Source: a bacterium (lineage in GTDB: Bacteria > Patescibacteriota > Saccharimonadia > Saccharimonadales > SZUA-47). From it: a DNA stretch of 60,712 bases. Of the stretch, positions 27,483-60,712 are shown piece by piece. The stretch covers positions 1 to 60,712 of the forward strand of contig JAUIBQ010000004.1 of the NCBI GenBank assembly GCA_030427445.1, given 5' to 3'. The position numbers and the translations under genes are program-made. The notes under the pieces are model-generated. The model had not been told where the DNA came from and did not search any database. It worked only from the letters and a program-made list of their open reading frames with translations. How positions within the stretch are numbered: the first letter of the stretch is position 1; each line of letters starts with the position of its first letter.

Positions 27483-30400
27483 GTGTTGCCAACAAACAAC
27501 AAAAAGCAACACGTGAAATATTTAAAAAACAACAAACATAAAAACGTACTATTAAATATATGTACAGCACGGGATGGCAGAGCATCCCTTGCTGGCGTTA
27601 GAGGCCATATACAACGTGTATGGCCTCTTTTCTTTGGTCTAATTTTTCAGATCAGCCGTCGTTCAACCTCACGCGCCCGAGTGTTGAACGACGTTTGTTC
27701 TGAAAAAGTCGTCAACCGAACCCAGTCTTCAACCTCACGCGCCCGAGTGTTGAATGCTGGGTTTGGTTTGCGACGAGCAAAACTCAGTATTCTAGGTCAG
27801 ACCCAGTCTTCAACCTCACGCGCCCGAGTGTTGAATGCTGGGTTTGGCTTTGAATACGCACAACCATCATTGCAGTCAGGATTAACCTCACGCGCCCGAG
27901 TGTTAATCCTGGCTATAGTGATGATGTTGGTTGCCCCTATGGTTATGGCAGTTACTAACGTAGGTATTGCCTCCGCCGCTCCATCCGACACCCTTAACTT
28001 CCAGGGTCGACTCCTCGATGTAAGTGGGGGTCTTGTCTCAGACGGTTACTACAACATAGAGTTTAATCTCTACACTGCAGCAAGCGGTGGATCAAGCATT
28101 TGGACAGAAAGCAGAGAATATAACTCAGGCTCAGGATCATGTACTGGACCTATCAATGGCAATGACTGTCGTGTGAGAGTCTCTAATGGATACTTCTCAG
28201 TTTACCTAGGTGAGGTCACTGCACTACCAAACATAGACTACAGTCAGCAACTCTACCTCACCATGAACATTGACCAAAACGGTACAACAAGCGCAGGAGC
28301 AATTACATACGACGGAGAAATGAACCCTAGATTCAAACTCACTGCAGTACCATATGCTTTCCGGGCTGCTAATGTTGCAAGTGGAGATACAAATGCAGCA
28401 TCAACTGACTCAAGTGACGTAAGTATTACTACTGGTGATGCACTCGGTGCGACAAGTGACTCAGGTGATGTCACGATAGATTCTGGAACAGCAACAGGCA
28501 CTGCAGGTCAGGTACTACTTGGTACTACAAACGCATCAGGTGTCTTAATCGGTAACGCGGGCGCCACAACTACGATTCAAGGGAGTGTGTCGCTTACGGG
28601 TGCAGGCACAGCCCTCACGGTTACGAATGACGCACAGTTTAATGGGGATGTGACTATTGGCTCAGATACGAGCGATTCATTGACCGTAGAGGCTGACGCG
28701 ACGTTTAACGGCTCCCTCACAGTGAGTACCGGTGATGTATTCCAGAATGCAGGTGCGACACTATTTAGCGCGACTAGTATTTCAGATAGAGCCACTGGTG
28801 GCAACATAGGCACGGCAGCAGCTACTGTAGATATTGCTACGACATTCGATGTCAACCAGACGACAGCAGGTCAAACACTTACATTGCCAACTCCAACAAA
28901 TACGGCTTCTGGTCGAGTTGTTTATGTAAACAACGTAGGTTCTGAGAACTTCACGATGTACGGCGAGACGATTGAGACTGGTAGCAGTAGTACATTTATA
29001 TGGAATGGATCTAGTTGGACGACTTCAGTATCGTTCTCTAACACTGGTGTAGACACAGTAGGTGCGCTAGATGGAGTTGCTGCAGCTGCAAACGGTGCGA
29101 CGATTTCTGGTACAACTATTTATCTCCAGTCTGCATCAGCTACTGCTGCTGGATTAGTAAACACATCAGCTCAGACATTTGCTGGCACTAAGACGTTCAA
29201 TAACGGTATTGTATTAGCCGCGAATCAGACCCTCACTGTTACAGGTGGCACAACTGCCAACCGTCCAGGTTCACCAACGGCTGGTATGGTCTATTATGAC
29301 ACTGATACAAACACCCTTCTTACGTATAACGGTACTAAGTGGATCGCGGATCGTGGTGAATACATTATTGTTGCGGCCAATGACTCTACACAAGCTGAGA
29401 AAGACAGTGCTGACTACGTAGCCGATAACACCGATGACCATTTGACTATTAACTCTGCAATAGGTGCACTGAGTAGCGGCGGAGGTAAAGTGTTACTCTT
29501 ACCGGGTACGTTCACGGTAGACGGTTCAATAGAGATAGAAAGCAATGTGACGCTCGCTGGTTCTGGTCAGGAAGCTACGACTCTTATTGCTGAAGCAGGT
29601 GCTTTAGCTGCACAATACGACGTTATCGAAAATGCAAACCCAGGTTCAACTGATAACAACATAACGATCCGTGACCTAACAATCGATGGAAATAAAGATA
29701 ATGTAACTGGTAATGACGTAGAAGGTATCCTGTTTGACACAGTAGGTTCTGGCAGCGGCGCTACGTACGTACGAGGCTTCTTGATCGAGAACATCACAGT
29801 TACTGACACTGAAGGTAACGGTATAGATATCGATACATCCGCAAACGGTTCTATTAAAAACGTAACAGTAAAAGACTTTGGCGTTGCAAATGGTATCCGC
29901 TTGCTCGATTCTGACTACATTAGGGTAGAAGGTAGCGACATAATCGATGGCTTAGCCGACGGACTGTTTATAAGTGCTTCGGACAATAATATTGTGTACG
30001 GCAACTTTATCGATGACAATGGGAATAATGGTTTAGAACTAAATGGAGCAACTCGAGACAACGTTATAGATGGCAACAGGATTACAAATAGTGGTGATCA
30101 TGGTATTGAGCTTGCTGGTGTGGGAGCAAAACAATACAACATTATCAGTAACAACTATATAGGTAATAACACTGATCGAGGATTTACCTCCGTAAATTCA
30201 TATCACAACACTATAACTGGTAACCAATTCTATACAAATGACGCGTCAGGCGTTGATAGTCATATTAATCTTGGTGGATCAGGCGCTAATAACGTCATTA
30301 CTAATAACGTTATCCGTGAAAGCTCAAGTGACGGTTCGGTTTCTATTGCGATTGCGTCTGGCAACGCCACTACATATGTAGCAGATAACCTTATCGACAA

Positions 30401-33400
30401 TGTTGGAGCTGTAGCAGACTCTAGTACATCTACAATCTATGCGAACCAGATGGATGCGTCAGACAATCTTGTACTTCAAGCATCTGGTACGGCAGACGTA
30501 CTTATTAACTCAGACACAAGCATCACAGGAGCACTTGACGTGACTGGTGCAGCAACCTTCGACGGAAATGTCACAGTCGGCGACGCAGCTGGCGACACAC
30601 TCACCGTGAACGCTGGCTCTATCCAATTTGCTAATAACTTCACTAGTTGTACAGTCATTAACACTGATGCTTCAGGCAACTTAGGATGTGATACTAGTAC
30701 ATATTTGACATCAGCAACTGTCTCGTTGCAGGGTGCTTATGACGGTGGTAATACGGTCACTACAACTAATGCACGCGATATATTGTTCACTCTTGCAGAC
30801 ACTACGACCGATAGTGACTTTATCATTGATATAGCTAGTGGTTCTACAAGTGAATTTGCTATCAAAGGTGCGGGCACCAACTTCTTCACAGCTACCCAAA
30901 CAACATCTCAAGAAGGTCAAATAGCAATTAAGTCTAACAGTGACTATGCTTTTGCTATTACAAACTTCCCTAACCAAGAAGTCTTTACTGTAGACGCAAA
31001 CTATGCACAAACTTTAGTAAGTAATAATGCTAACACTGCAGGACGACCAGCACTATCATTTGCACAAGATACAGACACCGGAATATATCGCATAGGTGCT
31101 GATCAGATTGGCGTCTCGACAGGTGGTTCTTTGAGAGTATCAGTTACTGACGCAACGACGACCGTAACAAACGCTCTAACTGTCACTGGCCTCACCACCC
31201 TCAACGGTGGCCTCACTGTCGAAGCAGGTGATAACTTCACCTTTAACTCAGATGTTTTCACAGACTTCACTGGTGGAGGACTATACAACAACTCCGGAGT
31301 ACTTAGTGTCTCTAACACTGGCGCATCTGGCTTTTTCCAGAATGGTGGAAACTTATTTGGCACTACAGCTACCCTAGGAACTAATGACCTAAACCCACTA
31401 GTACTTAGAACTAACTCCACAACAGCATTAACCATTGATACTTCTCAGAACATTACTACCACAGGAAACTTAGACGTGGCTGGTCGCGGTGCGTTTGGTA
31501 ATACTGGTGGTATAGGGACTAACTTTAATTTACTCGGAATCTTGCAGGTTGATGCTGAGCTATCTGTGGAAGCTAGCATTACATCTGTTATAAACGATGC
31601 ATATCAAGCTGCATCGGCAAATATATTATCTGTCAACCCAGCATCAAACCCTGCATCTTCTGGAAATATTATAGGAGGATTTGATTACGCTGAGGTGAAT
31701 GCTGCCAACACTACAAATGTTAGTAACCTAAATCTTGTTGGAACCGCTGGATTCGCTGTTGCACAAGGTAGCGGTGACATAGGAAGTGTTTCAGGCGGTT
31801 CCTTCAGTACTACTAATCTCAGCACGGGTACAGTCGGAGTGCTCTCGGGCATAGAAGCAGTTGTTACAAGTGGTGGGAGTGTGTCGGAGGCCTATGGAGG
31901 TAATATCATCCTTGGCAATTCAGGCAGTGGGACAATCTCAAACGCCAGAGGACTGAGAATTGACGTATTTAACTCGGGCAGTAGTATAACAAATGCCGCG
32001 GGCATAGTTGTTGAGAGGGTTCAAGGCACTAATACTACCAACTTGCTACTAGGTACAGGCACAATCCCATCCGGCAACTACTCAATCTACAGTGCTTCAA
32101 CAGCAGCTAACTACTTCGCAGGAAACCTCACATTAAACCAAGCACTGTTAGTTAACGGCAACACTACAATCGGTAACGCGAATACCGACACCTTGACAAT
32201 AAACGCTGGTTCATCTGGAAGTGGCATTACATTTGGGGATAGCTCATTTGCAAACTGTACACTTACTACGGTTGCAGGCGTTCTAACGTGTGGTTCATCT
32301 GGCTCTGCTTCTGACTTACAGGGTGCTTACGTCGGTGGTAACACAATTGTGGCAACCAATGCCGAAGGCGACATTGATTTGACGGTATCTGAAGCAACGA
32401 ACTTTACTGTAGACATAACAGGTACTGGTAACTTCCAGGTGCAAGACGGGGGCACACCGGTATTTACAGTAGCTGACGGCGGGGCATCAACATTTGCTGG
32501 GACATTAGCCGTGAATGCAGGCACTATAACAAACAGCGGTGCTGCTCAGTTAATTAACTTTACTTTAGGTGATGACGCAGATCAGGATCAGGTGGTAGGT
32601 CTAGCTGTTCAGCCGACAAGTGTAAACGGTGGTGATTTCGACAATCTTGTAGCTATATATGCAGCGCCTATTACTGCCTATGCTAACACCTGGGAAGTTG
32701 CGTACGGAGTTGGAGCTGGGTACGATATCGACTTTATTGTTTCAGACTCAGACGCAGTCTTTGCAGTAAATGATGGTGGGGTGTACAACTTCAACTCATA
32801 TAATGGTGCAACATTTGATACGCTAGTCACAATTACTGATGTAGGTTCCGTTGGTAACGTCGGTATAACCGGCACATTGCAGGTTGATGGCCTCACCACC
32901 CTTAACGGTGGCCTCACTATCCAAGCGGGAGACACATTTAACTTCAACAGTGACGCGTTTAGTGACTTCACAGGGGGCGGTCTCTACAACAATGCCGGTG
33001 TATTAAGCGTCACGAACACTGGTGCAAATGGGTTCTTCCAAAATGGCGGGAACAGCTTCGGTGTAGCTACCACTATCGGCACTAATGATGCACAAGCCCT
33101 AGGTATAGAAACAGGTGGGACCACACGCTTCACAGTAGCAGCTGCAGCCTCGACCCTAACTGGTAACGGCGCTACAACAATATTTGGTGGAACTTCACTT
33201 TACTTAGGTACTACTGGGGCCAATTCACTAACATTGGCTACAAATGGTACTACGAGGTTTACAGTAGCTAATAATGCTTCAACCATAAGCGGAAACGGTG
33301 CGACAAGTCTTGTTGGTGGTACTACACTAACCCTCAACGCAGCAGCTACAAGTGCACTCAACTTAGGGACAACTCAAACAACTGGAATACTTACCATTGG

Positions 33401-36400
33401 AGGCACTGGTGCAGCAACAGGAGCTATCAACCTAGGTACAGGTACGGGAGACCAAACGATCAACCTGGCAACTGGAAGCGGGTCTGGCAATAAGACAGTT
33501 ACGCTTGGAGCAAATAACGGTTCTAGTTCTACGACAGTACGATCAGGTTCTGGTGGAATTTCTCTACAAGGTAATACATCTGTATCTGGTCAACTCACAA
33601 TCGGTCAGGCTGATACTACCGGTACACTGCTCGTTTTAGATACTAAAACAGATCTAGGTGATCCGTCTGGCGTAAATGGTGCCCTGTACTACAACTCTAA
33701 TATTGATAAGTTCCGATGCTATGAAAATGGTTCATGGGTTGATTGTATGGCTGTAGTTTCAAACGGGACAAACCTGTATGGAGGCACAGGTGCACTTAGC
33801 ACAAATACAACAGGGTACAGTAATGTGGCATTTGGACAGAATGCGTTAGGGGTAAGTACGACAGGTTGGCAAAATGTCGCGGTAGGTGTTGGATCACTTT
33901 TTTCATCAACAGGTAATGACAATATCGCAATTGGCTTTAATGCTGGAGATAACCTCACTTCTGGCAACGGCAACATAATTATTGGCTCTGATATAGATTT
34001 TGCCTCTGCAACTGGCTTTAATCAACTAAACATCGCAGGTCTCATAACAAGCTCAAACTACACATCAGGCGGGCAGTTTAATGGCACCCTATTAGTGACA
34101 GGTCTAACTACACTCAATGGTGGCCTCACTGTTGAAGCAGGCGACACATTCACATTTAACTCCGATGCATTCACAGACTTCACTGGCGGTGGGTTAGTAA
34201 ATACAGGCGGTGTTCTATCAGTTGATACAACATCTGCAGCTGGCTTCTTCCGTAATGGAGGAAATAGCTTCAGTGGTACTGCAACATTAGGCACAAACAA
34301 CGCTAACAGTTTAGTACTGGAAACTAACAATCAATCAGCGCTAACTATAGCTAATGGCGGTGCTATTACTCTCCAGAACGCATCTAACTCTACAAATGCG
34401 TTTCGTGTGAACACGTCAGGAGGGGCGTCACTACTTAACGTCGATACTACAAACTCACTCGTGACGGTAGCGACGCCAGTCTTCCAGACAGTGACAAACA
34501 CTAACTGTGGAGTGAACTGTACTATTACTCAAAGTAATGTAGACAACAATTCAGCAATCATTGTAAATGCTACAGCAGAAGAACTGGAGATCACTCTACC
34601 TGATCCTACTAATGCTACAGCTGGTCGTGTTGTGTATGTTACAGCAGCGAATGGTTCAAACGACTTCACATTGCTTGTAAATGGCGGTGGTCAAGGCAAC
34701 GAGATTGCGATGCGCGCTAATACTACAGCGACGATGATTTGGAATGGAAATGATTGGACAGCTGCTGGTGCATCTAGTTCTACAACTCTGCAGGCAGCAT
34801 ATGACAATACACTTACAAGTGCCGGTGGTGCAGAAATTGTACTAAGTGCCGCAGGAGGAAACGCAGACGGACTTACAGTTCGAAACAATGCTACTGCGCC
34901 TATTATTGGTGGTATATTTGAGGCTCAGACGTCTATAGGCTCTAACTTGTTCAGTGTGAACAACAATGCAACAGAATTTGCAACGAATGGTGGAGCAGAA
35001 ACCGACGGTGGTGGGGCAAGTACATTCCCAGTAAGTACTTGGGATACAACTACAGGCGGTACGGTCGATAGATACACTACAGCTGGCGACAACGTCGCTA
35101 CAGGACAGGCTTCTGTACGAGTTCAGACTACAGGTGTTAATCACGGCGCTCGAAATAGAATAAGCACCGCACTGACATCAGGTCTTACATACACCGTGTC
35201 ATTTGCTGTCAGAGCTACTTCAAGCTTCTCAACGTTAGATGTTCTTTACTCTCCTGATGGCTCTACTTCCGGCACGACTAACTGTGCAACTGGACAACGA
35301 GTAACTAGTGGCCAGTGGACTCGCATCACCTGTACGTTTGTAGCTGGTGGTAGTATCAACTCAAATAATTCAATATTGATAAGACAGTCAGATGGAACAT
35401 CAAGGACATTCTATATAGACAACTTGAGTATCAACGTGAACGCTTCGGCTTCGTTCGCGGCAGATGGTAGCGTAGATGTAGCACTTGGCAGTAATTGGAC
35501 TGCATTCGGTACGCTAGACTCACTTACAAGAGAGACAAGCGTTATCTATGACACAAGTGGAAGTGTTGCTGTTGATACTCCTAACGCTGCTAACAGGGGC
35601 GTACGAAACAACCTATCGATTACTCCAGATACAGATACTCAATACCTCGTCAGTTTCTATGCGAGAAGCACAAACACATTCAATGACATTCGGGTCAGAT
35701 ACTCACGTAACGGAGGTTCAAACTTCGTAACTTGTGAAGACTACAATACTCAGAGCATATCGACGACTGGCTTTACAAAAGTAACGTGTCTCTTCACGAC
35801 AGACGGTACGACTGCATCTAACCCCGACTTGATTATTGATCAACCAACGGGCTCTAACCGTATCTTCTACATCGATGCGCTCACTGTGACACTTAACAGC
35901 GATACATCTAACAATGTTCAGATTGGTGGTGGTAATAGAGGTGGTCCCGTTACACTGTTCACCCTCGACAGATCAGCTGGTGCTCCGATAGCAGACAACA
36001 ACGAAGCATATCTCGGCTCTATGTACTATGACACCACAACAGGACGCATCCAATGTTATGAAGCTGATGGATGGGGTGCATGTGGTGCTCCACCTGACAA
36101 CGTAGTTAACCTAAACCCTGAGTATGCTGGTTCTGTGCTTAACGGCTCTGGTGTGGGTACTATGACTGCAGACTTCTGTTCAAATGGTACTGACCTTACT
36201 GTGAACACCAGTTTCTGTGATACAGGTGAAGCGCGTAACTTCTACAACTGGACATCTCCTCAAGCTACAGAACAGACATATAGCATCTATGTGACGTATC
36301 AATTACCTGAAACCTTTAACGGCTTTAGTAGCGATGACACTGTTCAGCTTGTGGGTCGTGTCGACAATACATCTAATGCATCTGTAACTTACGAAATGTT

Positions 36401-36638
36401 CCACTCAACTGGATCCGATGTAACTCAGTGTGGTACTGGTGAAACGAATGTTATTACAGGTGGTGGGGGCTCTGCAGATACGTGGTATAGCTACGGTATT
36501 AACGGCAACGAATCTACAGGCTGTGCGTTAAACGCGAGCGCAGCAGGAGATTTCATCATCTTCAAGATCAACTTGAAGGCACAAAGTAATGCTAACGCCT
36601 ATGTCTCAACCTTAAGCTTTGTTACTACTGGTAGATAG
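27483..36638 (+). CDS. Giant exported fibre/adhesin-like protein 1 (up to 3051 aa; start uncertain, alternative TTG 27870)
   Basis: Signal peptide ending IASA; TLNFQGRLLD domain; right-handed beta-helix (~29360-30450); three LNGGLT..AGD repeats; two CBM4/9-like domains (~34960-35900). Confidence 0.88.
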   Translation: MLPTNNKKQHVKYLKNNKHKNVLLNICTARDGRASLAGVRGHIQRVWPLFFGLIFQISRRSTSRARVLNDVCSEKVVNRTQSSTSRARVLNAGFGLRRAKLSILGQTQSSTSRARVLNAGFGFEYAQPSLQSGLTSRARVLILAIVMMLVAPMVMAVTNVGIASAAPSDTLNFQGRLLDVSGGLVSDGYYNIEFNLYTAASGGSSIWTESREYNSGSGSCTGPINGNDCRVRVSNGYFSVYLGEVTALPNIDYSQQLYLTMNIDQNGTTSAGAITYDGEMNPRFKLTAVPYAFRAANVASGDTNAASTDSSDVSITTGDALGATSDSGDVTIDSGTATGTAGQVLLGTTNASGVLIGNAGATTTIQGSVSLTGAGTALTVTNDAQFNGDVTIGSDTSDSLTVEADATFNGSLTVSTGDVFQNAGATLFSATSISDRATGGNIGTAAATVDIATTFDVNQTTAGQTLTLPTPTNTASGRVVYVNNVGSENFTMYGETIETGSSSTFIWNGSSWTTSVSFSNTGVDTVGALDGVAAAANGATISGTTIYLQSASATAAGLVNTSAQTFAGTKTFNNGIVLAANQTLTVTGGTTANRPGSPTAGMVYYDTDTNTLLTYNGTKWIADRGEYIIVAANDSTQAEKDSADYVADNTDDHLTINSAIGALSSGGGKVLLLPGTFTVDGSIEIESNVTLAGSGQEATTLIAEAGALAAQYDVIENANPGSTDNNITIRDLTIDGNKDNVTGNDVEGILFDTVGSGSGATYVRGFLIENITVTDTEGNGIDIDTSANGSIKNVTVKDFGVANGIRLLDSDYIRVEGSDIIDGLADGLFISASDNNIVYGNFIDDNGNNGLELNGATRDNVIDGNRITNSGDHGIELAGVGAKQYNIISNNYIGNNTDRGFTSVNSYHNTITGNQFYTNDASGVDSHINLGGSGANNVITNNVIRESSSDGSVSIAIASGNATTYVADNLIDNVGAVADSSTSTIYANQMDASDNLVLQASGTADVLINSDTSITGALDVTGAATFDGNVTVGDAAGDTLTVNAGSIQFANNFTSCTVINTDASGNLGCDTSTYLTSATVSLQGAYDGGNTVTTTNARDILFTLADTTTDSDFIIDIASGSTSEFAIKGAGTNFFTATQTTSQEGQIAIKSNSDYAFAITNFPNQEVFTVDANYAQTLVSNNANTAGRPALSFAQDTDTGIYRIGADQIGVSTGGSLRVSVTDATTTVTNALTVTGLTTLNGGLTVEAGDNFTFNSDVFTDFTGGGLYNNSGVLSVSNTGASGFFQNGGNLFGTTATLGTNDLNPLVLRTNSTTALTIDTSQNITTTGNLDVAGRGAFGNTGGIGTNFNLLGILQVDAELSVEASITSVINDAYQAASANILSVNPASNPASSGNIIGGFDYAEVNAANTTNVSNLNLVGTAGFAVAQGSGDIGSVSGGSFSTTNLSTGTVGVLSGIEAVVTSGGSVSEAYGGNIILGNSGSGTISNARGLRIDVFNSGSSITNAAGIVVERVQGTNTTNLLLGTGTIPSGNYSIYSASTAANYFAGNLTLNQALLVNGNTTIGNANTDTLTINAGSSGSGITFGDSSFANCTLTTVAGVLTCGSSGSASDLQGAYVGGNTIVATNAEGDIDLTVSEATNFTVDITGTGNFQVQDGGTPVFTVADGGASTFAGTLAVNAGTITNSGAAQLINFTLGDDADQDQVVGLAVQPTSVNGGDFDNLVAIYAAPITAYANTWEVAYGVGAGYDIDFIVSDSDAVFAVNDGGVYNFNSYNGATFDTLVTITDVGSVGNVGITGTLQVDGLTTLNGGLTIQAGDTFNFNSDAFSDFTGGGLYNNAGVLSVTNTGANGFFQNGGNSFGVATTIGTNDAQALGIETGGTTRFTVAAAASTLTGNGATTIFGGTSLYLGTTGANSLTLATNGTTRFTVANNASTISGNGATSLVGGTTLTLNAAATSALNLGTTQTTGILTIGGTGAATGAINLGTGTGDQTINLATGSGSGNKTVTLGANNGSSSTTVRSGSGGISLQGNTSVSGQLTIGQADTTGTLLVLDTKTDLGDPSGVNGALYYNSNIDKFRCYENGSWVDCMAVVSNGTNLYGGTGALSTNTTGYSNVAFGQNALGVSTTGWQNVAVGVGSLFSSTGNDNIAIGFNAGDNLTSGNGNIIIGSDIDFASATGFNQLNIAGLITSSNYTSGGQFNGTLLVTGLTTLNGGLTVEAGDTFTFNSDAFTDFTGGGLVNTGGVLSVDTTSAAGFFRNGGNSFSGTATLGTNNANSLVLETNNQSALTIANGGAITLQNASNSTNAFRVNTSGGASLLNVDTTNSLVTVATPVFQTVTNTNCGVNCTITQSNVDNNSAIIVNATAEELEITLPDPTNATAGRVVYVTAANGSNDFTLLVNGGGQGNEIAMRANTTATMIWNGNDWTAAGASSSTTLQAAYDNTLTSAGGAEIVLSAAGGNADGLTVRNNATAPIIGGIFEAQTSIGSNLFSVNNNATEFATNGGAETDGGGASTFPVSTWDTTTGGTVDRYTTAGDNVATGQASVRVQTTGVNHGARNRISTALTSGLTYTVSFAVRATSSFSTLDVLYSPDGSTSGTTNCATGQRVTSGQWTRITCTFVAGGSINSNNSILIRQSDGTSRTFYIDNLSINVNASASFAADGSVDVALGSNWTAFGTLDSLTRETSVIYDTSGSVAVDTPNAANRGVRNNLSITPDTDTQYLVSFYARSTNTFNDIRVRYSRNGGSNFVTCEDYNTQSISTTGFTKVTCLFTTDGTTASNPDLIIDQPTGSNRIFYIDALTVTLNSDTSNNVQIGGGNRGGPVTLFTLDRSAGAPIADNNEAYLGSMYYDTTTGRIQCYEADGWGACGAPPDNVVNLNPEYAGSVLNGSGVGTMTADFCSNGTDLTVNTSFCDTGEARNFYNWTSPQATEQTYSIYVTYQLPETFNGFSSDDTVQLVGRVDNTSNASVTYEMFHSTGSDVTQCGTGETNVITGGGGSADTWYSYGINGNESTGCALNASAAGDFIIFKINLKAQSNANAYVSTLSFVTTGR
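27600..27635 (+). terminator. Terminator-like hairpin inside the 5' part of gene 1
   Basis: AGAGGCCATATAC-AAC-GTGTATGGCCTCT-TTTCTTT. Confidence 0.7.
27643..27914 (+). repeat. Array of four hairpins with an invariant 21-nt cap
   Basis: AACCTCACGCGCCCGAGTGTT at 27665, 27731, 27812 and 27884, each closed by a complementary stem. Confidence 0.95.
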
Positions 36639-45492: not shown

Positions 45493-45547
45493 TACGGCAG
45501 ATCTAAAAAAATAAAAAAGATCAAAACAAAAAAACAAAAGGCTACAA

Positions 45548-51500: not shown

Positions 51501-54500
51501 GTACCGCTAGTTCAGTAAGTTCATTCACGGTTGACGCAGATGGCAGGTTGACTGCTGCGAGCAATACTCCTATAGCAATAGCAGCTACGCAAATTACTTC
51601 TGGTCAACTTAACGATGCTCGATTAAGTGCAAATGTGGCATTACTAGATCGTTCCGGTCAAACATTCACCGGAGCAAATACTTTTAGTGCTGCCGGAACT
51701 GCATTAACTGTAACGAATAATGTTAGTATCGGTGGATCACTTAGTCTTGCAGGTTCAGTAGTAAGGAGCTGGAGTGCATCTGATACAGATGTGGATAGTC
51801 TTGTCACTGGCACAACTTCTTCAGGTACACTTGTTGAATCACCTGAAAATGCACACTTTACAATCGGATTACGTGAAAACGGAGCTGATGATTCATTCAG
51901 TATTATTAGCGGTGATGGCAACTATAGTTCAGACACAACATACGATAAAGTGGTGTTGCGAGTAAATGCGAATGGCGCAACTACTTTAGGCGGCAACACA
52001 ACTATCCAGGGAGATTTAACAGCTACTGGAGCTAACCTTATACTCGGTACAACAGATCTTAGTGAGGCAGATCTCGACGCGCTTGACGACGGAGTCATTA
52101 ATTTAAATACTGAAACTACTGGAACACTTTCAGTAGGGAATGGTGGTACAGGTACAACAACACTGGCTTCTGGTGTGCTGTTCGGTAACGGCACTAGTGC
52201 GATAACATCAACAGGAACCCTTAGTAATGGACAGCTTCTAATTGGTGATGGTTCCGGCGCTCCAAGCCTTGCTACATTAACACAAGGATCTGGTGTAACT
52301 ATAACGAATGGTGCAGGATCGATCTCGATTGCGTCTACATTAGGCACAAGCATAGACAGCAGTGAGATAACTAATGGATCAATCGCAGAAGTAGATCTTA
52401 GTATTTCAAACTCTCAGGCATCTGGATGGGTTCTAACATCTGATGGCTCTGGTGGCTTTACATGGGTAGACCCGGGAACCGTCGGTTCGACTCTAGATGA
52501 GGCAACTGTAGAGAGTTATATCTTCGACGGCGACAATTCAGGTACTCTTAGCTCTGGCACTCTTGCTCTTGACTCATTAAGCTACACTGGAGACTTAAAC
52601 GATGCTCAGATTAGCAATTCGCTAACAATCACAGCTGGGAGTGTGAATGGTTCGGTGTTGACTGCAGGCAGTGTGGCGAATGGGTCATTAGCCAATAGCT
52701 CGATTACTGTTACGACTGGGAATGGTTTAACTGGTGGAGGCGGTGTCTCACTTGGTGGGTCACTTGGCCTATCGTTATCAGCACTTACTGCTAACTGGGA
52801 TCAAACTGGGGCCTACGATATCGTGCTTAACAATGCTGCAAGTGAGTTGCAGATCTTGGAGAGCGTAGGGGGCACATATTATGGTACGTTTGACGTGGGC
52901 AACCTAAGTAGTAACCAGACATTTACTTTCTTGAATGGTGGCACAGTTGTTACTAGCAGCAATACATCCACGTACGCTACAACAGGAGTAACTGCTGGGA
53001 GTGGTCTTACTGGTGGTGGCACTACAGGGGTTCTTGGAGTAAACGTTGGTGCTGGTACCGGTATTACTGTTAATGCTGATGATATTGAAGTCGACTATGG
53101 CAATACAGCCGGTACAGCTGTTGAAGGTAATACTTCTATATCTGTTACGGCGGGAACAGGTCTTTCTGGGGGAGGAAGTATTACCCTAGGATCAGGTGGT
53201 TCAGTCTCATTACAGAGTACGCTTGGTACTAATATAGATTCAAGTGAAATAGTTAACGGAACAATTCAAGAAGTTGACTTAGAAGTTACGAACGCAGGTA
53301 CAGACAATTACTTATTAAGCTACGATTCTGCGACAGGCGGATTTACCTGGGTAGACCCAACTGGTGTTGGAGTAAACGAAGCAACAGTCGAAGCCTACAT
53401 CTTCGATGGCGACAACTCAGGGACACTTAGTTCTGGTACACTAGCCCTCAACTCATTAAGCTACACAGGTAGCTTAGGAGTAAGTAATGGTGGCACTGGA
53501 CTAACAAGTGCTGGTGCAGCAGGTGGTGTGTATTATTCTACGGGAACAGGTTTTGCTAATAGCGGAGCAGGCACAAGTGGAAATTGTCTCGTAAGCAATG
53601 GCGCAGGAGCTCCTAGTTGGGGTGCATGTGGTGGTGGTGCCGGCTTAACCACTCTGCAGGTTGCCTACGATAATGGTAGTAATTTAACAACAACAAACAA
53701 TCGCGATATCGAGTTTGTACTTGCAGACACGACGACCGACTCTTCATTCATCATTAATTTACAGGGCACAGGCAACTTATTTGACGTTCAAGATGCTGGC
53801 ACTAGCAAGCTGACTGTTGACGGTGCTGGTAATGTGGGAATTAATGATGCTTCACCAGGCTATAATCTTGATGTAAACGGTACATTTAGAGTCGTTGGAG
53901 CATCTTATTTTAACGGGCATATTGATTTAGGTAATGCGACTACTGACAATATTAGTTTTATCGGTCAAGTTGATAGTGACATTTTGCCCGCTACTAACGA
54001 TACGTATTCATTAGGCTCTTCTACACTTCGGTGGCAAGATCTATATCTTGGGCCAGCGAGCTTACACATTGGGGCCGATGGCGATGAAGGTGTATTGAGT
54101 TACAATACGGGAACTAACCAGTTCAACTTTGATAAAACAGTTAGAATTGATGCTGGTAGCGACACAAATGGAGGCTTACTTGTTAATGGTACTTCACAGC
54201 CGAATATTATGATTGCAAATGCTGGAACGATTAGAGCTCGTCTCGCGGTGGCCACTGTTGGCGGGGGCTACTCAAGCGATTCGAGTGTAAATGATGTCAT
54301 ATTGCGCTCTGAAGGAACGCGATTATTGTTCAATACTAACGGTGGCGGTGCATCTAGCTTAGCGGTAAACGGAGCGGACGTAGGAATCGGTACGCAAAAC
54401 CCTAATGCACGACTGCAAGTAAACGTTAATAATTCCGGTGTATCAGGAGACTTGAACACTACTGGAGTTGTTTCAGACTTAGACTCTAGAGATGGAGTTA

Positions 54501-56722
54501 TAGAGATCACAAATGATGTAGATAGTATCTTTGCTGGAATCCGTTTTGCTGCATTCAACGCCGAAGCAGCTATCGGTGCATCGTATGATTCCACAAATAA
54601 CTCATCACTAATATTTGGTACCGAAAGCTCAGCTAGTGCGGGAAGCATAACAGAGCGCATGCGTATCCAGTCTTCAGGCGATGTAGGTATCGGCACTGCA
54701 TCTCCTACCAACGCGCTGCATGTGTATAGGACTGGTTTTAGTCCTACGTCAAATGACGACACAGCGTTTCGGGTTGAAGGTAGCTGGGGTGGAGGAATCA
54801 CATTTAGTGAAAACGCCAATCGAGCGATGATTTGGTCGCCTGCTGGTAATTCTCTAGCATTTGGTACTGGTTGTAGCGCTAGTGGCTGCTCAAGTCAGAG
54901 CGGTAATCTGCAAATAGAATCAGGAGGAGATATTGTTGCCGGCAGCACTTCGAACGGTACTACAAATGTCAGACAGTTCAAGTTGCAGAGTGAAGGGTTT
55001 GCAGTGGTTAACCTAAAAGGCGATACTGAAAATTCAGCTGGTGAGCCAGGTGGAGCAGGTATTAAGCTGTCTGTAGATAATAATACCGATTCGAGTTATA
55101 ACGGGCTGTTCTCAATGATAAATTCTGCAGGTACAGATGGAGTGGGCGGCACGTATACTGGTACAGCAAGTAACAGCTTGCTACTCGGAACAGTCAATAA
55201 CTATCCACTTCAGTTCGGTGTGAATTCTAGTGTTGCACTAACACTCGAGAACTCAGGGACTCTCCAGTTCCCAAACAATACACAAGCTAAGATTAATCTT
55301 TACAGTACTACGTATGGACTAGGCGTAAGTGGCAACACATTGCAAGTTTATTCAGATAGGTATGTCGACTTCAACTCACTTGGTTATAACGGAACGACTC
55401 GAGTAGTATTTGACCTCGACAACGGTAACGCGACCTTTAACGGTACACTGCGTGCAGATAACGGCTTCGTTGCAGATGGCAATACTGTCATTGATAACGG
55501 CGGTGGCTGGCACCGCGCTCATGGTGACACAGGGTTTTATATCCAAGACTATACAGCAGGTATTCGAGCACTTGATGTACGTGTTCTTGATACCTACGAG
55601 AACAACGATTTTGATGTTAATGGTGGTGATCTCTATGTTCGAAACAGCGGTACATCTGTCGCAACGAACGGTAGTAACGGTGACTATACACGAATTCATC
55701 ATAACGGAACTAGTGGTTATATCGATGCGACCGGTGCTATAGTTTTAAGATCAAACGGAGGATCGGGAGGATTTACTGCTACCCTTGCAACAAACGGTAA
55801 TTTCACTGTCGGTTCCGGGTCACTGTTTGCTGATAACTTCGTGCCTACTGCAACAGGTTTCCCATATGTCGGAGCTTCAGCAGCGACGCAGAGCGCAGGA
55901 TCGGCATGCCGTTCAGGTAGTACAGGGCTTGGTTATGCGATTGGACGATGTTCATCTCTTCAGCAATATAAAGACTATACGACAGATATACCTTACGGGT
56001 TAGACACTCTTAGAGACTTGCGTCCTGTTAAGTATAAGTGGAACATCGATAGCATGGAGTGGGATATTGGATTTATCGCGGAAGAAGTTAATGCAGTAAA
56101 TCCAATCTTTAATGAGTATGCAGATGGTGAGCTTTCTGGTGTTAAGTACAGTCACTTAACTGCTTTGATTACTAAAGCCGTTCAGCAACTTGATGTTCAG
56201 GTGCAATCACACGACACACGTCTCTCTGCGCTAGAATCTTCCACTACAAACTTAACAAAGAAAAACATCACTGTTACAAATCAAACTACTACTGGTAAGT
56301 TATCTGTTACTGGCACTGCAACACTAACTAATCTCAAAGTAACAGGCGCTACTGAGGTTGCAGACCTTAAAGTAAACGGGAAGATTATCTCTGCAGGAAG
56401 TACCCCAACAGCAGTGTTGGGAGTGTCAACAACAGGAAATGGCTCGACATATTCAATTAGTGGCAACGATACAGCAGGAAGTGTAGAGATTACTACTGGT
56501 ACCGACACGCCTGCTAACCCACTTGCTTCTGGAGTGCAGGCATCGATTACATTTACCGAAGCATACAGTTCAGCACCGAGGGTAACGCTAACCCCAACAA
56601 GTGAAGCTGCTGCAGAGATTGGATATTACATTACTAAAACAACGTCTGGATTTAAGATACGATTTACTCAACAACCTCAGGCGAATACAACGTATAGCTT
56701 CGATTACCAGACCATCCAATAG
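45548..56722 (+). CDS. Giant exported tail-fibre-like protein (3724 aa) with beta-helix and peptidase S74 chaperone
   Basis: Signal peptide ending AEA; TLNFQGRLLD domain; beta-helix (~46870-48080); AGTGLSGGG and GGTG fibre repeats; SSLQQYK...LRPVKYKW...GFIAEEV...Y..L plus coiled coil. Confidence 0.9.
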   Translation: MHYSGRDARKAFKVKKKALLENHSSGNAFFIAFKDLGSTLRIKWILFACICLVVPFSVLPSSLTGQIAEAAPADTLNFQGRLLDSSGGLTSDGFYDIEFNLYDNASGGSSLWTETWNTGTSQVRIANGYFSVYLGTHTSFPSLDWTDDKFLTMNVEGDGEMNPRFRLTAVPYAFAAQQATELVASDSGFTTNVTVDTPTQNNSITLPDESGEVCLTSGNCAGVGGVGDILDGGQTGAISIGTTNDTTLTLLQNNNAALTVNSSQLLQFNAYSCSTFANGGTLTTDASGNVICADDDGGGGGSGVTTIGTIDGGTLSSNGASISGTTLYLQAASTLYPGLVTTGSQTFAGSKTFNSPAVFQDLTISAGESLQINSEWFGDLTGNGLTNSGSALTVLVQANKGLEVDSNGISLIDCADGQILQYATGSSSWACADTAGTGSDEIITVAAVDSTATQKAAADYVADGTSDETEINNALTEAYNSGVGGEVILLGGTFTVDGSISIPNNTTLSGEGSGTVIELDNLDSDINLITNTDTSGGTGVVVRDLTLDGRSDLNTAGNQFAILFSGMGSVSADRAGGLIENVSIVDFSPAGGFFYGGIALNGSDNNVISGNTLEGNGFGVYVGGSSKNKITDNYISGGNLGIYAQLTSNDNVIADNTISEHSLHGIHFDSSGTGTAITGNTIENNDQFGVYLENGFYYASIVGNTITSNDYGGIYLDIAHGSTIAGNTFDGNAGAVSTYAATDNTIVGNTITNSSIGGVYLEQSDTNIVSDNIFTNNAGDNIYLESDSNNNTISNNIITDSAASGFAIEINGATNDNNYLSNNTYSGTGAAGINDSGTNTIYAGQVDTSGNYDIQPTGTVELLANTNLTGDFDVTGTTSFDGAVTIGDAVGDTLTVNAGSIQFANNFVSCTAINSDASGNLGCDTNTYLTAGTISLQGSYDGGNTILADNAGGDIDFTVSEATSFTVDITGTGSFQVQDSGVAVFTIADGGAVTATQLVTLNGGLTVEAGDTFTFNNDAFTDLTGTGLQINSGSLETTLGTTIETSEITDANVTNSKLANSQLAVNTGSGLAGGGNISLGGSRTLSLGDLSSDWTQAGGYDIILDNAGSELRIVEASGGIYYGEFDVTDLNADRLYTFPDASGEVSVLGQIIENGELQNSNVTITAGTGLSGGGLVALGGSVSLTSTLGSSIDGTEIDNGTIEAIDFEVTAAPTDNYVLSYDSATGGFTWVDPGAVGTQLTEAEVEDYIFDADNGVKVLSSGQLALNSLTYTGQLENANISDTLTIGSSSTVDDGALSTNVSLLGSSIALGSETTGNYVQSISTGNGIQGGVSGVGSTPALSLSDLTANWNQTAAFDLVLDNTDSQLRILDDAGTYYGEFNVTGIGSDQVYNFGTGGVILSSGNIASYATTGVTAGAGLVNGGTTGTITLDVGAGNGLTVNANDIEVDYGSSANTAVEGNTTITISAGTGLSGGGLLTLGAGGTVTLNSNLGDTIDSSEIVNGTIQGADLESTNSATDTYVLTYDSATDGFTYVSQAAVGSAGGSGVTSLNSLTGALSINGNSQISVAPSGTDIDLSIATGSIGATQLGSTAVTASSYGSASQVATFTVDGDGRLTAAGNTSISIAATQVTSGTLSVSRGGTGVGSHTSGGILLGNGTSAIQNTGVLTNGQLLIGDGSGAPTVATLSSGSGINITNGSGSITIASTLGTAVDGSEIVNGSIEAVDIESTNVAGAGTDNYLLSYDNATGGFTYVDGGSVGTTLTEAQVEAYIFDGDNSGILSSGTLALNSLSYTGSLGVSNGGTGLTSAGAAGGVYYSTGTAFANSGVGTSGQCLLSSGAGAPTWGNCGGSGAGAVTLQVAYDQGNTITTTNARNIAYTLANTATDSDFVVNIASGSSSEVAFQFNGSSLLRIDSGGIDLIDVDVADFSGATVTFDAGEILETEIAQNSLDDSEIEDDSLTSSSLAANSVDSSELSSTTVGAGSYGTASSVSSFTVDADGRLTAASNTPIAIAATQITSGQLNDARLSANVALLDRSGQTFTGANTFSAAGTALTVTNNVSIGGSLSLAGSVVRSWSASDTDVDSLVTGTTSSGTLVESPENAHFTIGLRENGADDSFSIISGDGNYSSDTTYDKVVLRVNANGATTLGGNTTIQGDLTATGANLILGTTDLSEADLDALDDGVINLNTETTGTLSVGNGGTGTTTLASGVLFGNGTSAITSTGTLSNGQLLIGDGSGAPSLATLTQGSGVTITNGAGSISIASTLGTSIDSSEITNGSIAEVDLSISNSQASGWVLTSDGSGGFTWVDPGTVGSTLDEATVESYIFDGDNSGTLSSGTLALDSLSYTGDLNDAQISNSLTITAGSVNGSVLTAGSVANGSLANSSITVTTGNGLTGGGGVSLGGSLGLSLSALTANWDQTGAYDIVLNNAASELQILESVGGTYYGTFDVGNLSSNQTFTFLNGGTVVTSSNTSTYATTGVTAGSGLTGGGTTGVLGVNVGAGTGITVNADDIEVDYGNTAGTAVEGNTSISVTAGTGLSGGGSITLGSGGSVSLQSTLGTNIDSSEIVNGTIQEVDLEVTNAGTDNYLLSYDSATGGFTWVDPTGVGVNEATVEAYIFDGDNSGTLSSGTLALNSLSYTGSLGVSNGGTGLTSAGAAGGVYYSTGTGFANSGAGTSGNCLVSNGAGAPSWGACGGGAGLTTLQVAYDNGSNLTTTNNRDIEFVLADTTTDSSFIINLQGTGNLFDVQDAGTSKLTVDGAGNVGINDASPGYNLDVNGTFRVVGASYFNGHIDLGNATTDNISFIGQVDSDILPATNDTYSLGSSTLRWQDLYLGPASLHIGADGDEGVLSYNTGTNQFNFDKTVRIDAGSDTNGGLLVNGTSQPNIMIANAGTIRARLAVATVGGGYSSDSSVNDVILRSEGTRLLFNTNGGGASSLAVNGADVGIGTQNPNARLQVNVNNSGVSGDLNTTGVVSDLDSRDGVIEITNDVDSIFAGIRFAAFNAEAAIGASYDSTNNSSLIFGTESSASAGSITERMRIQSSGDVGIGTASPTNALHVYRTGFSPTSNDDTAFRVEGSWGGGITFSENANRAMIWSPAGNSLAFGTGCSASGCSSQSGNLQIESGGDIVAGSTSNGTTNVRQFKLQSEGFAVVNLKGDTENSAGEPGGAGIKLSVDNNTDSSYNGLFSMINSAGTDGVGGTYTGTASNSLLLGTVNNYPLQFGVNSSVALTLENSGTLQFPNNTQAKINLYSTTYGLGVSGNTLQVYSDRYVDFNSLGYNGTTRVVFDLDNGNATFNGTLRADNGFVADGNTVIDNGGGWHRAHGDTGFYIQDYTAGIRALDVRVLDTYENNDFDVNGGDLYVRNSGTSVATNGSNGDYTRIHHNGTSGYIDATGAIVLRSNGGSGGFTATLATNGNFTVGSGSLFADNFVPTATGFPYVGASAATQSAGSACRSGSTGLGYAIGRCSSLQQYKDYTTDIPYGLDTLRDLRPVKYKWNIDSMEWDIGFIAEEVNAVNPIFNEYADGELSGVKYSHLTALITKAVQQLDVQVQSHDTRLSALESSTTNLTKKNITVTNQTTTGKLSVTGTATLTNLKVTGATEVADLKVNGKIISAGSTPTAVLGVSTTGNGSTYSISGNDTAGSVEITTGTDTPANPLASGVQASITFTEAYSSAPRVTLTPTSEAAAEIGYYITKTTSGFKIRFTQQPQANTTYSFDYQTIQ
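45593..45640 (+). terminator. Terminator-like hairpin inside the 5' part of gene 3
   Basis: GCATTACTAGAG-AATCATAG-CTCTGGTAATGC-T7. Confidence 0.75.
50845..51008 (+). repeat. 164-bp intragenic repeat, copy 1
   Basis: 161/164 identical to 53386-53549. Confidence 0.9.
53386..53549 (+). repeat. 164-bp intragenic repeat, copy 2
   Basis: 161/164 identical to 50845-51008. Confidence 0.9.
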
Positions 56723-58007: not shown

Positions 58008-58131
58008 GGTTTCATTATAACACTTATGTATAAAAATGTAAAGGGGGGAGTAAACTGTATATCCTTTTAATAGTAGTATCATACTGCTAGCAATGAAATA
58101 CTAAATTATACTATGGCTGTCTTTCGGTGAA

Positions 58132-58195
58132 TGTGGAAAAATTAAAGATTTCACAGTAGCGAAATATTGCTTTTTACAACAGATGTCGTTACAGT
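58132..58195 (+). promoter_or_regulatory. Promoter of giant gene 4 with DnaA-box consensus
   Basis: TGTGGAAAA (58132-58140), TTGCTT (58167), 17 nt, TACAGT (58190). Confidence 0.6.
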
Positions 58196-58317
58196 GTTAG
58201 GTAGATCTGACTGACAAACAAAAAACGAAAAACAAACAGATCACAAGAACCAACTGAGAGGCAGGGTGAAACCTGCTACTTTTGGTAAAAACACAAAACT
58301 AAAACCAAAGGCAAAAA

Positions 58318-60712
58318 TTGCTGTCAACGCTCCACAATAAGCAAAGGCATGCTGTATGGCAAAAGAGGACATACGTCTACTTACTTTTGCCAATTTTTAT
58401 TTTGGTTTCAGTTTTTGCAGGTTTGGCAATCAGTCAGCAATCAGCTTCAGCCGCCACGTCTAGCACGTTGAACTTCCAAGGAAGGCTACTCGATATCGAC
58501 GGAGGGCTTGTAAGTGACGGGTCGTACAATATCCAGTTCAAGATTTACGACTCAGCAAGCTCAGGTCAAAGTGCGGCTGGTGTTTGTTCGCTCGATTCAA
58601 GCACGGATGATTGTTGGTGGATTGAAAACAGAACTGTCACTGTACGAAACGGTTATTTCTCGGTGTATTTGGCAGATGTGGCAAACGGTGGAACTGCGTT
58701 TACGGCAGGTATCCCGTGGGATCAAGAGCTTTGGCTAACAATGAACGTGAACAGTGATGGCGAGATGTCTCCAAGATTTAAGCTCACCGCAGTACCGTAT
58801 GCATTTCGTGCTGGTGCTCTCGTCGATGCTAGTGGCGCTGAAAAGACAGCTGATGACTTTGCTCAGCTCGCTCCAGTATCAGTACAAGCAGTCAATGCTG
58901 CAAACGCTGCACTTCGCTTGAACCAAACGGGAACAGGAAACTTGCTACAGCTTCAAGGCGATGGTTCAGACGTGTTTGTCGTCGACAAGTCTGGTAATAC
59001 GACAATCGGCGGTGGTTTGACTCTTGGTAGCTCGACATCAACGACGGCCGGAACCATACGCTGGACGGGCACTGACTTCGAAGGGTTTAACGGTTCAAGC
59101 TGGGATTCATTGACCAGTGGAGGAGGTGGTGGGGGCGGTGGTTTGTCAACGCCGGCTGCAGCGACGTTCTACGATGGCACAGGTGGTGCAACGGTGGTCT
59201 CTGGTTCTTTTTCGACGATTAACATCGATTCGACACTTAGCAACTCCGAACCTGGAGTAATAACACTTTCAGGAGATGAAGTGACTATTGGAGAGGACGG
59301 TTACTACGAAGTCAGTTACGATGTGACCGCTCGACTGAGCTCAGGTACTCGATCAGGGTTTAACGCAAAGCTACAGCTCGACTCTGGCGGAGGATACGTC
59401 GACGTGTCTGGTTCTGAAGGGTATCACTATGGACGAATCACGAGTGAAACCCAAGGCACATCGTCAGCGTCAGTCGTCTTAAATCTCACAGCTGGTGATA
59501 AAGTTCGTATTCAGGCAAGCGGAACGTCCCAATCGTTCACTACCATTAGCAATGGTAGTCGATTGTCCGTCGTACGACTTGCTGCGGGAGGCGCAAGCAG
59601 CGGAGACTCGTTCGTGAATAACGGCAACACATTCAACTCACTCGCCATACTTGGTACCACAGATACCTACGGTCTTCAACTTATAACTGATGGCAATCCC
59701 GTCCTTGATATCACTGCAACTGGTGACTCTACCTTCACAGGAGCTCTCGATGTAGACGAGCTACTGACTGCTAACAATGGACTCACACTTACTTCTGGTG
59801 ACCTAGATCTAAGTGGAGGAGATATTCTTAACGCAGGAAGTATCACTGCTACTTCATTCGCTGGTGATGGCTCAGGGTTAACAGCTCTTAATGCTGGTCA
59901 AATAACCACAGGCACACTAGATGATCTCAGGCTATCGTCAAATGTTGCGCTGTTGGATACGGCGCAGACTTATAGTGCACTTCAGAACTTTAGTACTGCT
60001 CTACGCGTCGGCAATACCGCAGACACAACAGCCGGTAATATACGTTGGACCGGAGCTGACCTCGAAGTATATGATGGCACTGATTGGGTCAGCCTTACGA
60101 GCGGAGGGTCGGTTGATCCGCCGGGTGATTACATTAGCGTGACTACAACGAGTAACTCTAATGCGGCTGCTGGGCCGTATGATGCTTTTGAGTCAGGAAA
60201 CTATGGTTCATATACAAGCACAACAAATGCCTCAAATGGAATTACTTATACGCCTGCAAATGGTAGGTTCACTATTGCAGAAGATGGTACATATAATATA
60301 GCGAGCACAATGCAGGTAGAGACAAGTAGCAACGCTTTGGTTAACTTTATTGTTCGAGTTAATGGTGTGAGTGTTTATACGCACGATACGTTTATACATA
60401 CAGCTGTAGACCCTGCCGAGCGAAGCATATCACTATTGCAAGATCTTACGGCTGGTGATTACGTTGAGTTCCTTGTACAGGGCCCTTCGGGTAATGTTAC
60501 TGTTCACGGGGGCACAACTGCGACGCTTGTTCCGGTGTCATCTGCTGGTGGTCTTGGCGGTGGGGGCGGTGGCGGCACCGCGTTTGAACAAGGTGGCAAC
60601 ACATTCAACTCACTCGCCATACTTGGTACCACAGATACCTACGGTCTTCAACTTATAACTGATGGCAATCCCGTCCTTGATATCACTGCAACTGGTGACT
60701 CTACCTTCACAG
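58318..60712 (+). CDS. Giant exported protein 4, paralogue of genes 1 and 3 (partial; absent from the ORF track)
   Basis: Manual translation from TTG 58318 (AAAGG upstream): MLSTLHNKQRHAVWQKRTYVYLLLPIFILVSVFAGLAISQQSASA-ATSSTLNFQGRLLD...PRFKLTAVPYAF; two C1q/BclA-like domains (~59160-59580, ~60130-60540); runs off window. Confidence 0.9.
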   Translation, partial: MLSTLHNKQRHAVWQKRTYVYLLLPIFILVSVFAGLAISQQSASAATSSTLNFQGRLLDIDGGLVSDGSYNIQFKIYDSASSGQSAAGVCSLDSSTDDCWWIENRTVTVRNGYFSVYLADVANGGTAFTAGIPWDQELWLTMNVNSDGEMSPRFKLTAVPYAFRAGALVDASGAEKTADDFAQLAPVSVQAVNAANAALRLNQTGTGNLLQLQGDGSDVFVVDKSGNTTIGGGLTLGSSTSTTAGTIRWTGTDFEGFNGSSWDSLTSGGGGGGGGLSTPAAATFYDGTGGATVVSGSFSTINIDSTLSNSEPGVITLSGDEVTIGEDGYYEVSYDVTARLSSGTRSGFNAKLQLDSGGGYVDVSGSEGYHYGRITSETQGTSSASVVLNLTAGDKVRIQASGTSQSFTTISNGSRLSVVRLAAGGASSGDSFVNNGNTFNSLAILGTTDTYGLQLITDGNPVLDITATGDSTFTGALDVDELLTANNGLTLTSGDLDLSGGDILNAGSITATSFAGDGSGLTALNAGQITTGTLDDLRLSSNVALLDTAQTYSALQNFSTALRVGNTADTTAGNIRWTGADLEVYDGTDWVSLTSGGSVDPPGDYISVTTTSNSNAAAGPYDAFESGNYGSYTSTTNASNGITYTPANGRFTIAEDGTYNIASTMQVETSSNALVNFIVRVNGVSVYTHDTFIHTAVDPAERSISLLQDLTAGDYVEFLVQGPSGNVTVHGGTTATLVPVSSAGGLGGGGGGGTAFEQGGNTFNSLAILGTTDTYGLQLITDGNPVLDITATGDSTFT
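59623..59740 (+). repeat. Perfect 118-bp repeat, copy 1
   Basis: Identical to 60595-60712. Confidence 0.92.
60595..60712 (+). repeat. Perfect 118-bp repeat, copy 2 (cut by window end)
   Basis: Identical to 59623-59740. Confidence 0.92.

Follow-up and report, generated by a model that had tools for sequence, protein, structure and literature searches.

Three very large secreted proteins of an ultrasmall bacterium of the SZUA-47 lineage (Saccharimonadales, Patescibacteriota) appear to be surface adhesins of the mosaic adhesive trimer (MAT) fibre family, likely trimers that grip host glycans through exchangeable heads, a reading to which a probability of roughly 0.8 is assigned. Their genes, g1, g3 and g4, lie in the second half of a 60,712-nucleotide stretch, here called the window, which is contig C34 (JAUIBQ010000004.1) of a 966-kb genome (G000) of 43 contigs and 97% completeness. 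The domain that the three proteins share is, judged by sequence comparison, a homologue of the N-terminal domain that defines the MAT fibres with which the predator Bdellovibrio bacteriovorus recognises its prey (Caulton et al., 2024; PMC10769870), hence the family itself is not new. Trimer formation and host binding in this organism would follow from the domain families present and from analogy with Bdellovibrio.

An earlier, sequence-only reading of the window had described a domain of about 100-130 residues common to the three proteins behind a signal peptide, and this domain proved real, spanning 100-125 residues. The copies of g1 and g4 are 57-67% identical to that of g3, and a profile of the three copies finds only these three matches among the 4042 six-frame open reading frames of the genome, the next best having an E-value of 0.7. 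By hydropathy and motif, g1, g3 and g4 each have an N-terminal signal-peptide-like segment: there is one hydrophobic stretch per protein, located right before the domain (residues 140-158 in g1, 45-63 in g3 and 20-38 in g4) and followed by A-x-A. Of 47 aligned rows, 38 have [AV]-x-A ahead of the domain, which favours signal cleavage over an uncleaved anchor. The predicted fold of the g3 copy (mean model confidence, pLDDT, 85.6) is a beta-sandwich with a C-terminal helix. Pfam, NCBIfam and PHROG hold no family for the domain, its sequence has no match in the PDB, and fold searches with the model found nothing in the PDB at E<=0.001; the highest Z-score was 6.9, for VIA, with none of 8 or more, and viral matches were weak only (TM about 0.5); this lack of matches to a model does not show that the fold is new. 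A complex prediction for three copies of the domain, for which the controls were not folded, scored 0.00 and speaks neither for nor against a trimer.

In Bdellovibrio, 21 MAT fibres have been defined by a beta-rich domain of about 130 residues that comes right behind the signal peptide. Their tips are of S74, TNF-like, C-type-lectin or other adhesive kinds, and the same study showed that tips are trimeric, that the fibres are displayed on the surface and that they bind glycans (Caulton et al., 2024; PMC10769870). The comparison was made with five Bdellovibrio genomes reached by a published 16S primer, belonging to strains other than HD100, in which the MATs were defined. A profile of 47 Patescibacteria N-domains returned 41 rows at E<=1 in these genomes (best 2e-6), 40 of them in frames of 522-1695 residues. 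In the two genomes checked, 9 of 13 and 8 of 12 S74-bearing frames have the match, each time directly behind a signal-peptide-like segment. These frames are taken as MATs because their architecture and lengths are close to those of Table S1 of the same paper, a set compared here without HD100. Profile-profile alignment (hhalign) against 26 Bdellovibrio domains, out of 29 collected, runs end to end over 109 columns with a probability of 98.1% and an E-value of 1.2e-13. In a midpoint-rooted tree with eight Bdellovibrio domains and one long Bdellovibrio branch, an order-level clade is kept (97/90) and g1 pairs with g3 (100/98); of 49 N-domain references, two from unpublished genomes (L012, L016) and two near-duplicates (L039, L043) were left out of the alignment.

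The likeness to MAT fibres extends beyond the domain. Both groups consist of a signal peptide, the homologous beta-rich domain and a long mosaic shaft, both include S74 and non-S74 members, C1q/TNF-like and lectin-like heads and several paralogues, and both are without a transporter domain. They also differ in several respects. Patescibacteria are monoderm and have no outer membrane. Three copies lie in one cassette here, whereas the 21 Bdellovibrio genes are scattered, and the proteins measure about 1900-3724 residues instead of 626-1959. The N-domain is shorter and has neither the central insertion nor the conserved cysteines of the Bdellovibrio domain, whereas an internal beta-helix, carbohydrate-binding modules (CBM), tandem C1q domains and about 200 residues behind S74 are features of the fibres described here. 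Linkage to Pam-like genes, discussed below, occurs in Patescibacteria and was not seen in the five Bdellovibrio genomes.

That the three proteins carry different heads, as the sequence-only reading had it, was borne out: a beta-helix, CBM4/9 domains, a jelly-roll tip, S74 and C1q/BclA domains are distributed over g1, g3 and g4. The domains of g1 are missed by whole-length Pfam scans and become visible only on scanning the protein in pieces; a long leader, the hydrophobic segment and the N-domain are followed by a beta-helix, repeated shaft modules, two CBM4/9 domains and a jelly-roll tip. The best structural match of the tip model is CBM61 (Z 11.1, root-mean-square deviation 2.9, 139 residues aligned), with C-terminal modules of tailspikes close behind. 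In g3, the N-domain and a beta-helix precede an internally repeated shaft, an S74 chaperone and about 200 further residues; Ser3470 and Lys3475 of the S74 domain have catalytic spacing (Ser-x4-Lys), and a Leu replaces the consensus Asp. S74 and C1q/BclA_C are trimer-associated families. Three shaft motifs quoted in the sequence-only reading as shared recur in g1 and g3; g4 has none of them, either in its window part or in its continuation. Across the best 150 representatives of the family, 102 are at least 1000 residues long, and the last 130 residues of these 102 fall into 29 clusters (some genes may be truncated); of all 150, the g1 tip is present in 36, the g1 beta-helix in 15 and the g1 CBM pair in 21. 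As for anchors, no C-terminal beta-barrel or sortase signal was matched in the fibres by Pfam or NCBIfam, and there is no C-terminal hydrophobic segment or terminal LPXTG; the statement that LPXTG is absent holds for C-terminal sorting signals, while the neighbouring g2 protein has one internal LPATG at residue 1037.

Gene g4 is broken by the contig end inside an internal repeat of 118 bases with 100% identity (59623-59740 and 60595-60712). It most likely continues on contig C5 (G000:C5:34672-31532, L153:3532-6672, minus strand) to about 1900 residues in total, because C5 starts with 65 bases identical to window positions 59902-59966 with the frame kept, contigs from public sequencing runs (which may be the source of the assembly itself) bridge the two ends, and a database protein of 1857 residues matches the window part and the C5 part in order. 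The continuation shares a module of about 200 residues with g2 (53%). A domain in it weakly resembles the N terminus of the phi29 capsid fibre (E 0.0017) and has no Pfam match; the D-x-A-E motif ahead of it is one associated with peptidase-G2-type chaperones. Downstream on C5 follow a gene for a 173-residue membrane protein, then parA and parB.

A working mechanism may be sketched from these features. The fibres would be exported by the Sec pathway and cleaved at A-x-A, so that the N-domain becomes the mature N terminus. Trimers would fold from the C-terminal end, in g3 with the help of the S74 chaperone, a domain that is present and would cleave itself. The conserved N-domain would then hold the fibre on the surface by binding a partner; Caulton et al. 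(2024; PMC10769870) proposed for it retention on the cell with the variable tips outward and did not identify the partner, for which the best candidate here is the head of a Pam-tip-pilin-like protein. Hosts would be bound through the beta-helix, CBM-like and C1q-like heads detected in the sequences. Finally, specificity could change by module exchange within a cassette fixed between rplU and parA, in line with the observed mosaicism and synteny. The sequence-only reading had guessed at docking through the common domain, and the role proposed for the MAT domain agrees with that guess.

The domain is widespread. It occurs in 26 of 41 near relatives (tallies that include the unpublished genomes G006 and G019), and a profile census across the candidate phyla radiation (CPR), which had been suggested along with the first reading, found it in 87 of 301 genomes of the phylum with a narrow profile and in 103 of 301 with a broad one. 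Named homologues are mostly from Patescibacteria or Saccharibacteria, the closest from Saccharibacteria/Saccharimonadales, in keeping with a Saccharibacterium as the source of the window. In a 1.84-billion library, 23,074 clusters match at E<=0.001, clusters of Myxococcota and Bacteroidota among them. No paper joining MAT fibres with Patescibacteria was found in the literature, though subscription journals and the supplements of the MAT and Pam papers might hold such a statement; Tables S1, S3 and S4 of PMC10769870 list no Patescibacteria, and the accessible text of PMC10633639, PMC13689555, PMC13059738 and 10.64898/2026.10.06.756255 makes no such link.

Several observations weigh against a role of these fibres as MAT-type host adhesins. 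The very wide spread of the domain means that it need not serve predation or parasitism, and a non-predator is listed among the MAT carriers (Caulton et al., 2024; PMC10769870). Since 198 of the 301 genomes of the phylum searched gave no match to the domain, the CPR lifestyle can do without it. In Bdellovibrio, deleting one MAT gene at a time had little or no effect (PMC10769870), and in cultivated oral Saccharibacteria type IV pili and other adhesins are credited (PMC10633639; 10.64898/2026.10.06.756255, as far as their accessible text goes). The match to Bdellovibrio is distant, with 25% consensus identity, and runs through strains other than HD100.

Two readings compete over how the fibres are held on the cell. 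Chaperone-assembled Pam pili have been described in Ca. Mycosynbacter amalyticus, and the accessible text of that preprint mentions an unnamed "tail fibre-like protein" that co-localises with pam, without identifying it as a MAT (PMC13278184; bioRxiv, 2026). The label Pam-like rests here on gene architecture, M. amalyticus sequences not being part of the comparison. The genome studied and many relatives have membrane-anchored two-domain chaperones, pilin-like genes and a single-domain tip-like gene of about 250 residues, beside an ATP-synthase-like gene, as in the Pam system. The fibres do not look like pilins, for which a C-terminal truncated Ig domain accepting a donor strand would be expected, and their C termini are heads; the N-domain shows no similarity to the tip-like protein by profile (probability 0.4), and for a pilin-like homologue no PDB relative was found. 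In other Patescibacteria, fibres adjoin genes with the architecture of a Pam pilus operon. Chaperone-like genes were found in 156 of 301 genomes, and 83 of the 103 MAT-positive genomes have them. With positions listed for 150 of 318 chaperone matches, distances could be counted in 66 of the 83 genomes that have the two; the chaperone lies within 10 kb of a MAT gene in 39 of these 66, in 33 upstream on the same strand, and on other contigs in 18. Setting aside G000 and the four seed genomes of the profile, 35 of 61 have it within 10 kb (chance, by our own arithmetic, a few per cent).

A head of about 55 residues (G000:C42:3352-3534), directly behind the signal peptide of the tip-pilin-like protein (G000:C42:2872-3621), tracks the MAT domain more closely than the chaperone does. 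Of 301 genomes 71 have this head, and 62 of these 71 are MAT-positive; among chaperone-positive genomes the MAT domain occurs in 57 of 63 with the head versus 26 of 93 without it. Head and MAT gene are within 10 kb in 40 of 62 genomes and on other contigs in 14. With one genome per family (70 families) the association holds (median table 26/1/15/28), and in 16 relatives from other families both are present in five, only MAT in one, only the head in one and neither in nine. The head motif has no family in Pfam, NCBIfam or PHROG, and its named homologues are hypothetical proteins of Patescibacteria or unassigned. On this basis it is tentatively proposed, as an idea that is doubtful so far, that the MAT base domain docks on this head, which would give a Pam pilus with swappable phage-like tips.

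The alternative, to which we give somewhat less than even odds, is that the same fibres are anchored without Pam, through a signal anchor that stays uncleaved or through small neighbouring proteins with a single membrane pass (the 272-residue protein of the window or the 173-residue protein after g4 on C5), the Pam link reflecting island clustering of surface genes. All nine matches of the 272-residue family adjoin a MAT or Kelch gene (two of them in the unpublished G006 and G019), and 17 of 32 tabulated genomes have a member of the 173-residue family no more than 12 kb from a MAT domain. All five Bdellovibrio genomes have MATs, and neither a Pam-like chaperone nor the head was found in them. 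G000 itself has its Pam-like genes on contigs C42, C33 and C18, apart from the fibre contig. Among MAT-positive genomes 41 of 103 lack a head match, including eight of family f42, and 20 of 103 lack a chaperone match; a permutation of head and MAT within families did not reach significance (54 observed, 51.9 expected, p 0.095). On the other side, the 272-residue family is present in only 9 of 41 relatives compared with 26 of 41 with the domain, the 173-residue family co-occurs weakly with MAT (33 of 71), the motif ahead of the domain speaks for cleavage, and the head stays correlated with MAT even in relatives in which it sits on a separate contig. Anchoring with or without Pam is compatible with the assignment to the MAT family, and so is the matrix role considered next.

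It is improbable, in our estimate, that the fibres act chiefly on matrix polysaccharide, degrading it or clinging to it as tailspike-like depolymerases or floc adhesins, rather than select hosts; the matrix and host roles are not exclusive. The right-handed beta-helices of g1 and g3 would fit such a role, as would the modelled g1 tip, which resembles C-terminal modules of the phage tailspikes K2-2, CBA120 TSP4 and Kp7 gp52, the GDSL/SGNH-like gene inside the cassette, and the labels of the best-covered public runs, which are biofloc or aquaculture metagenomes (the window DNA may itself come from the top two). However, the best PDB sequence match of the g3 beta-helix is NosD, of a non-catalytic type (E 9e-6), no catalytic residues were identified, and many homologues have no beta-helix, only 15-17 of the best 150 matching those of g1 and g3.

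With phage tail fibres and tailspikes the proteins share the S74 domain, the beta-helix and a CBM-like C-terminal tip, whereas they differ in being secreted and chromosomal, with an N-domain not found in phage collections and no virion genes. That they are left over from a prophage, a tailocin or some other phage-tail machine is very improbable: S74, the beta-helix, the weak phi29 match in the C5 part, one short PHROG match in g1 and two PHROGs of unknown function in g4 are modules of phage type, but the fibre genes carry signal-peptide-like segments, the housekeeping flanks are conserved across family and order, the 97%-complete genome has no Terminase_6N match and only one integrase-family match (PF00589), on contig C39 away from the cassette, and the N-domain was not found, with these queries, in 50,697 phage records, 72,556 plasmids or IMG/VR contigs. 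The first reading had seen no capsid, terminase or integrase and had named a prophage location as grounds for refuting it; the flanks and the Terminase_6N and PF00589 results speak against such a location, capsid and baseplate families not having been searched genome-wide.

The open reading frames given for g1, g2, the 272-residue protein, g3 and g4 were confirmed as described, and the features of the locus are collected in Table 1. Bases 1-27200 hold ordinary genes, which we take to be ftsA, ftsZ, a ribonucleotide reductase gene, ileS and rplU. The GC content of the cassette is like that of the genome. In relatives, fibres of variable content lie after ileS-rplU and before parA-parB, with rplU-fibre adjacency in G001, G005, G013 and G033 and fibre-parA adjacency in G004, G005, G007, G013 and G322.

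Table 1. Coordinates of the fibre cassette and its features in the window
Feature	Position	Strand	Remark
Left housekeeping flank, ileS and rplU	23918..27197	+	presumed names, from sequence recognition
g1, MAT-type fibre	27483..36638	+	up to 3051 aa
Four hairpin-forming in-frame repeats in g1 leader	27655..27912	+	no Rfam match
MAT N-terminal domain of g1	27990..28361	+	aa 170-293
Right-handed beta-helix of g1	29658..30245	+	PF13229 E 1.5e-19; PF05048
Two CBM4/9 carbohydrate-binding-type domains of g1	35034..35843	+	PF02018 E 6.6e-9 and 1.9e-5 (second just under cut-off)
C-terminal tip of g1, predicted galactose-binding-like jelly roll	36060..36635	+	pLDDT 86
g2, secreted Kelch-propeller protein with Gly-rich domain	36791..44503	+	2570 aa; without MAT N-domain
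Single-pass membrane protein	44526..45344	+	272 aa
g3, MAT-type fibre	45548..56722	+	3724 aa
MAT N-terminal domain of g3	45770..46069	+	aa 75-174
Right-handed beta-helix of g3	47321..48070	+	PF13229 E 4.4e-30
S74 intramolecular chaperone of g3	55955..56104	+	PF13884 over cut-off
GDSL/SGNH-hydrolase-like gene with membrane segment	56820..58082	-	between g3 and g4, opposite strand
g4, MAT-type fibre	58318->60712	+	798 aa in window, open at contig end
MAT N-terminal domain of g4	58465..58806	+	aa 50-163
Two BclA_C/C1q-like domains of g4	59215..60528	+	PF18573 E 1.4e-14 for protein
Repeat-containing stretch of g4 that breaks assembly	59623..60712	+	

The sequence-only reading had seen in the fibres, perhaps together with the Kelch protein and the 272-residue membrane protein, one modular host-recognition apparatus. 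What stands of it is a family of secreted mosaic fibres that are built on a common N-domain and encoded in the chromosome outside any prophage; the two neighbours do not hold up as general docks. In single-query searches the Kelch and the 272-residue proteins were each found in 9 of 41 relatives, more rarely than the N-domain, so neither looks like a general dock, and as obligatory partners they are rejected on distribution. They are rather optional neighbours, and where they are found they are always beside fibres or each other. A DUF4367-like lead for the 272-residue protein comes from its nearest Atlas cluster (27% of it), which is commonest in Saccharimonadota. One module of g2 (400 residues, 45%) is shared with a secreted protein of 1895 residues on contig C18 (G000:C18:10170-15854, L154:5170-10854, minus strand) that has PA14, Fn3 and H-lectin-like matches. 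The latter protein adjoins two chaperone-like genes and a pilin-like gene, its C terminus resembles pilin-like ends, and it may, by these sequence features, be a Pam-type tip adhesin. Beside the Pam-like genes of contig C42 lies a single-pass membrane protein of 339 residues (G000:C42:4524-5540, L194), whose homologue in G167 matches the C-terminal domain behind the S74 of g3 (36%); it could be an alternative candidate for the "tail fibre-like protein" in the accessible text of the Pam preprint (PMC13278184).

Some further observations concern the fibre leaders and other parts of the genome. The start of g1 is uncertain and may be GTG 27483, GTG 27513 (suggested by comparison with the leaders of orthologues) or ATG 27921. 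Across about 130 codons the leader repeats leave the reading frame uninterrupted, and their loose core occurs once each at six other places in the genome; similar in-frame repeats are present in four orthologous leaders (L004, L011/L023, L030, L027), together with a common basic N-terminal peptide. They may represent REP-like inserts, an RNA element with a regulatory function or an extension of the signal peptide. The idea of a riboswitch in the leaders was dropped, the Rfam scan of 26700-60712 having found nothing. A gene of about 210 residues, presumably resembling a REP-associated tyrosine transposase, lies in the fibre cassette of four relatives (L022:13949-14587, L025:17789-18430, L026:15751-16368, L028:6605-7219) and was not seen in the window; it might have to do with the hairpin repeats and with turnover of the cassette. 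Within g3, the 5' end holds a long inverted repeat (45574-45655, plus strand), a hairpin on the 30-bp scale. Elsewhere in the window, 95 bases assigned to the 3' end of a membrane-protein gene (3303-3905) are duplicated (92%; positions 2003-2097 and 3325-3419), and at the end of contig C18 (G000:C18:18700-19804) open reading frames with a GC-rich amino-acid composition unlike the rest may be foreign or mis-joined DNA.

On the question of how epibiotic Patescibacteria choose their hosts, studies of cultivated strains have dealt mainly with type IV and Pam pili. The presence of a homologous family of the Bdellovibrio prey-recognition fibres in about a third of the sampled genomes of the phylum, in a fixed cassette of variable content, provides named candidate specificity determinants with expressible tips. 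A MAT domain in a monoderm argues against an anchor that works in the outer membrane only, and the co-occurring pilin head reduces the question of binding to two small domains. If the fibres did dock on this head, the MAT N-domain would have its first named partner, and two systems that have been described separately would be joined.

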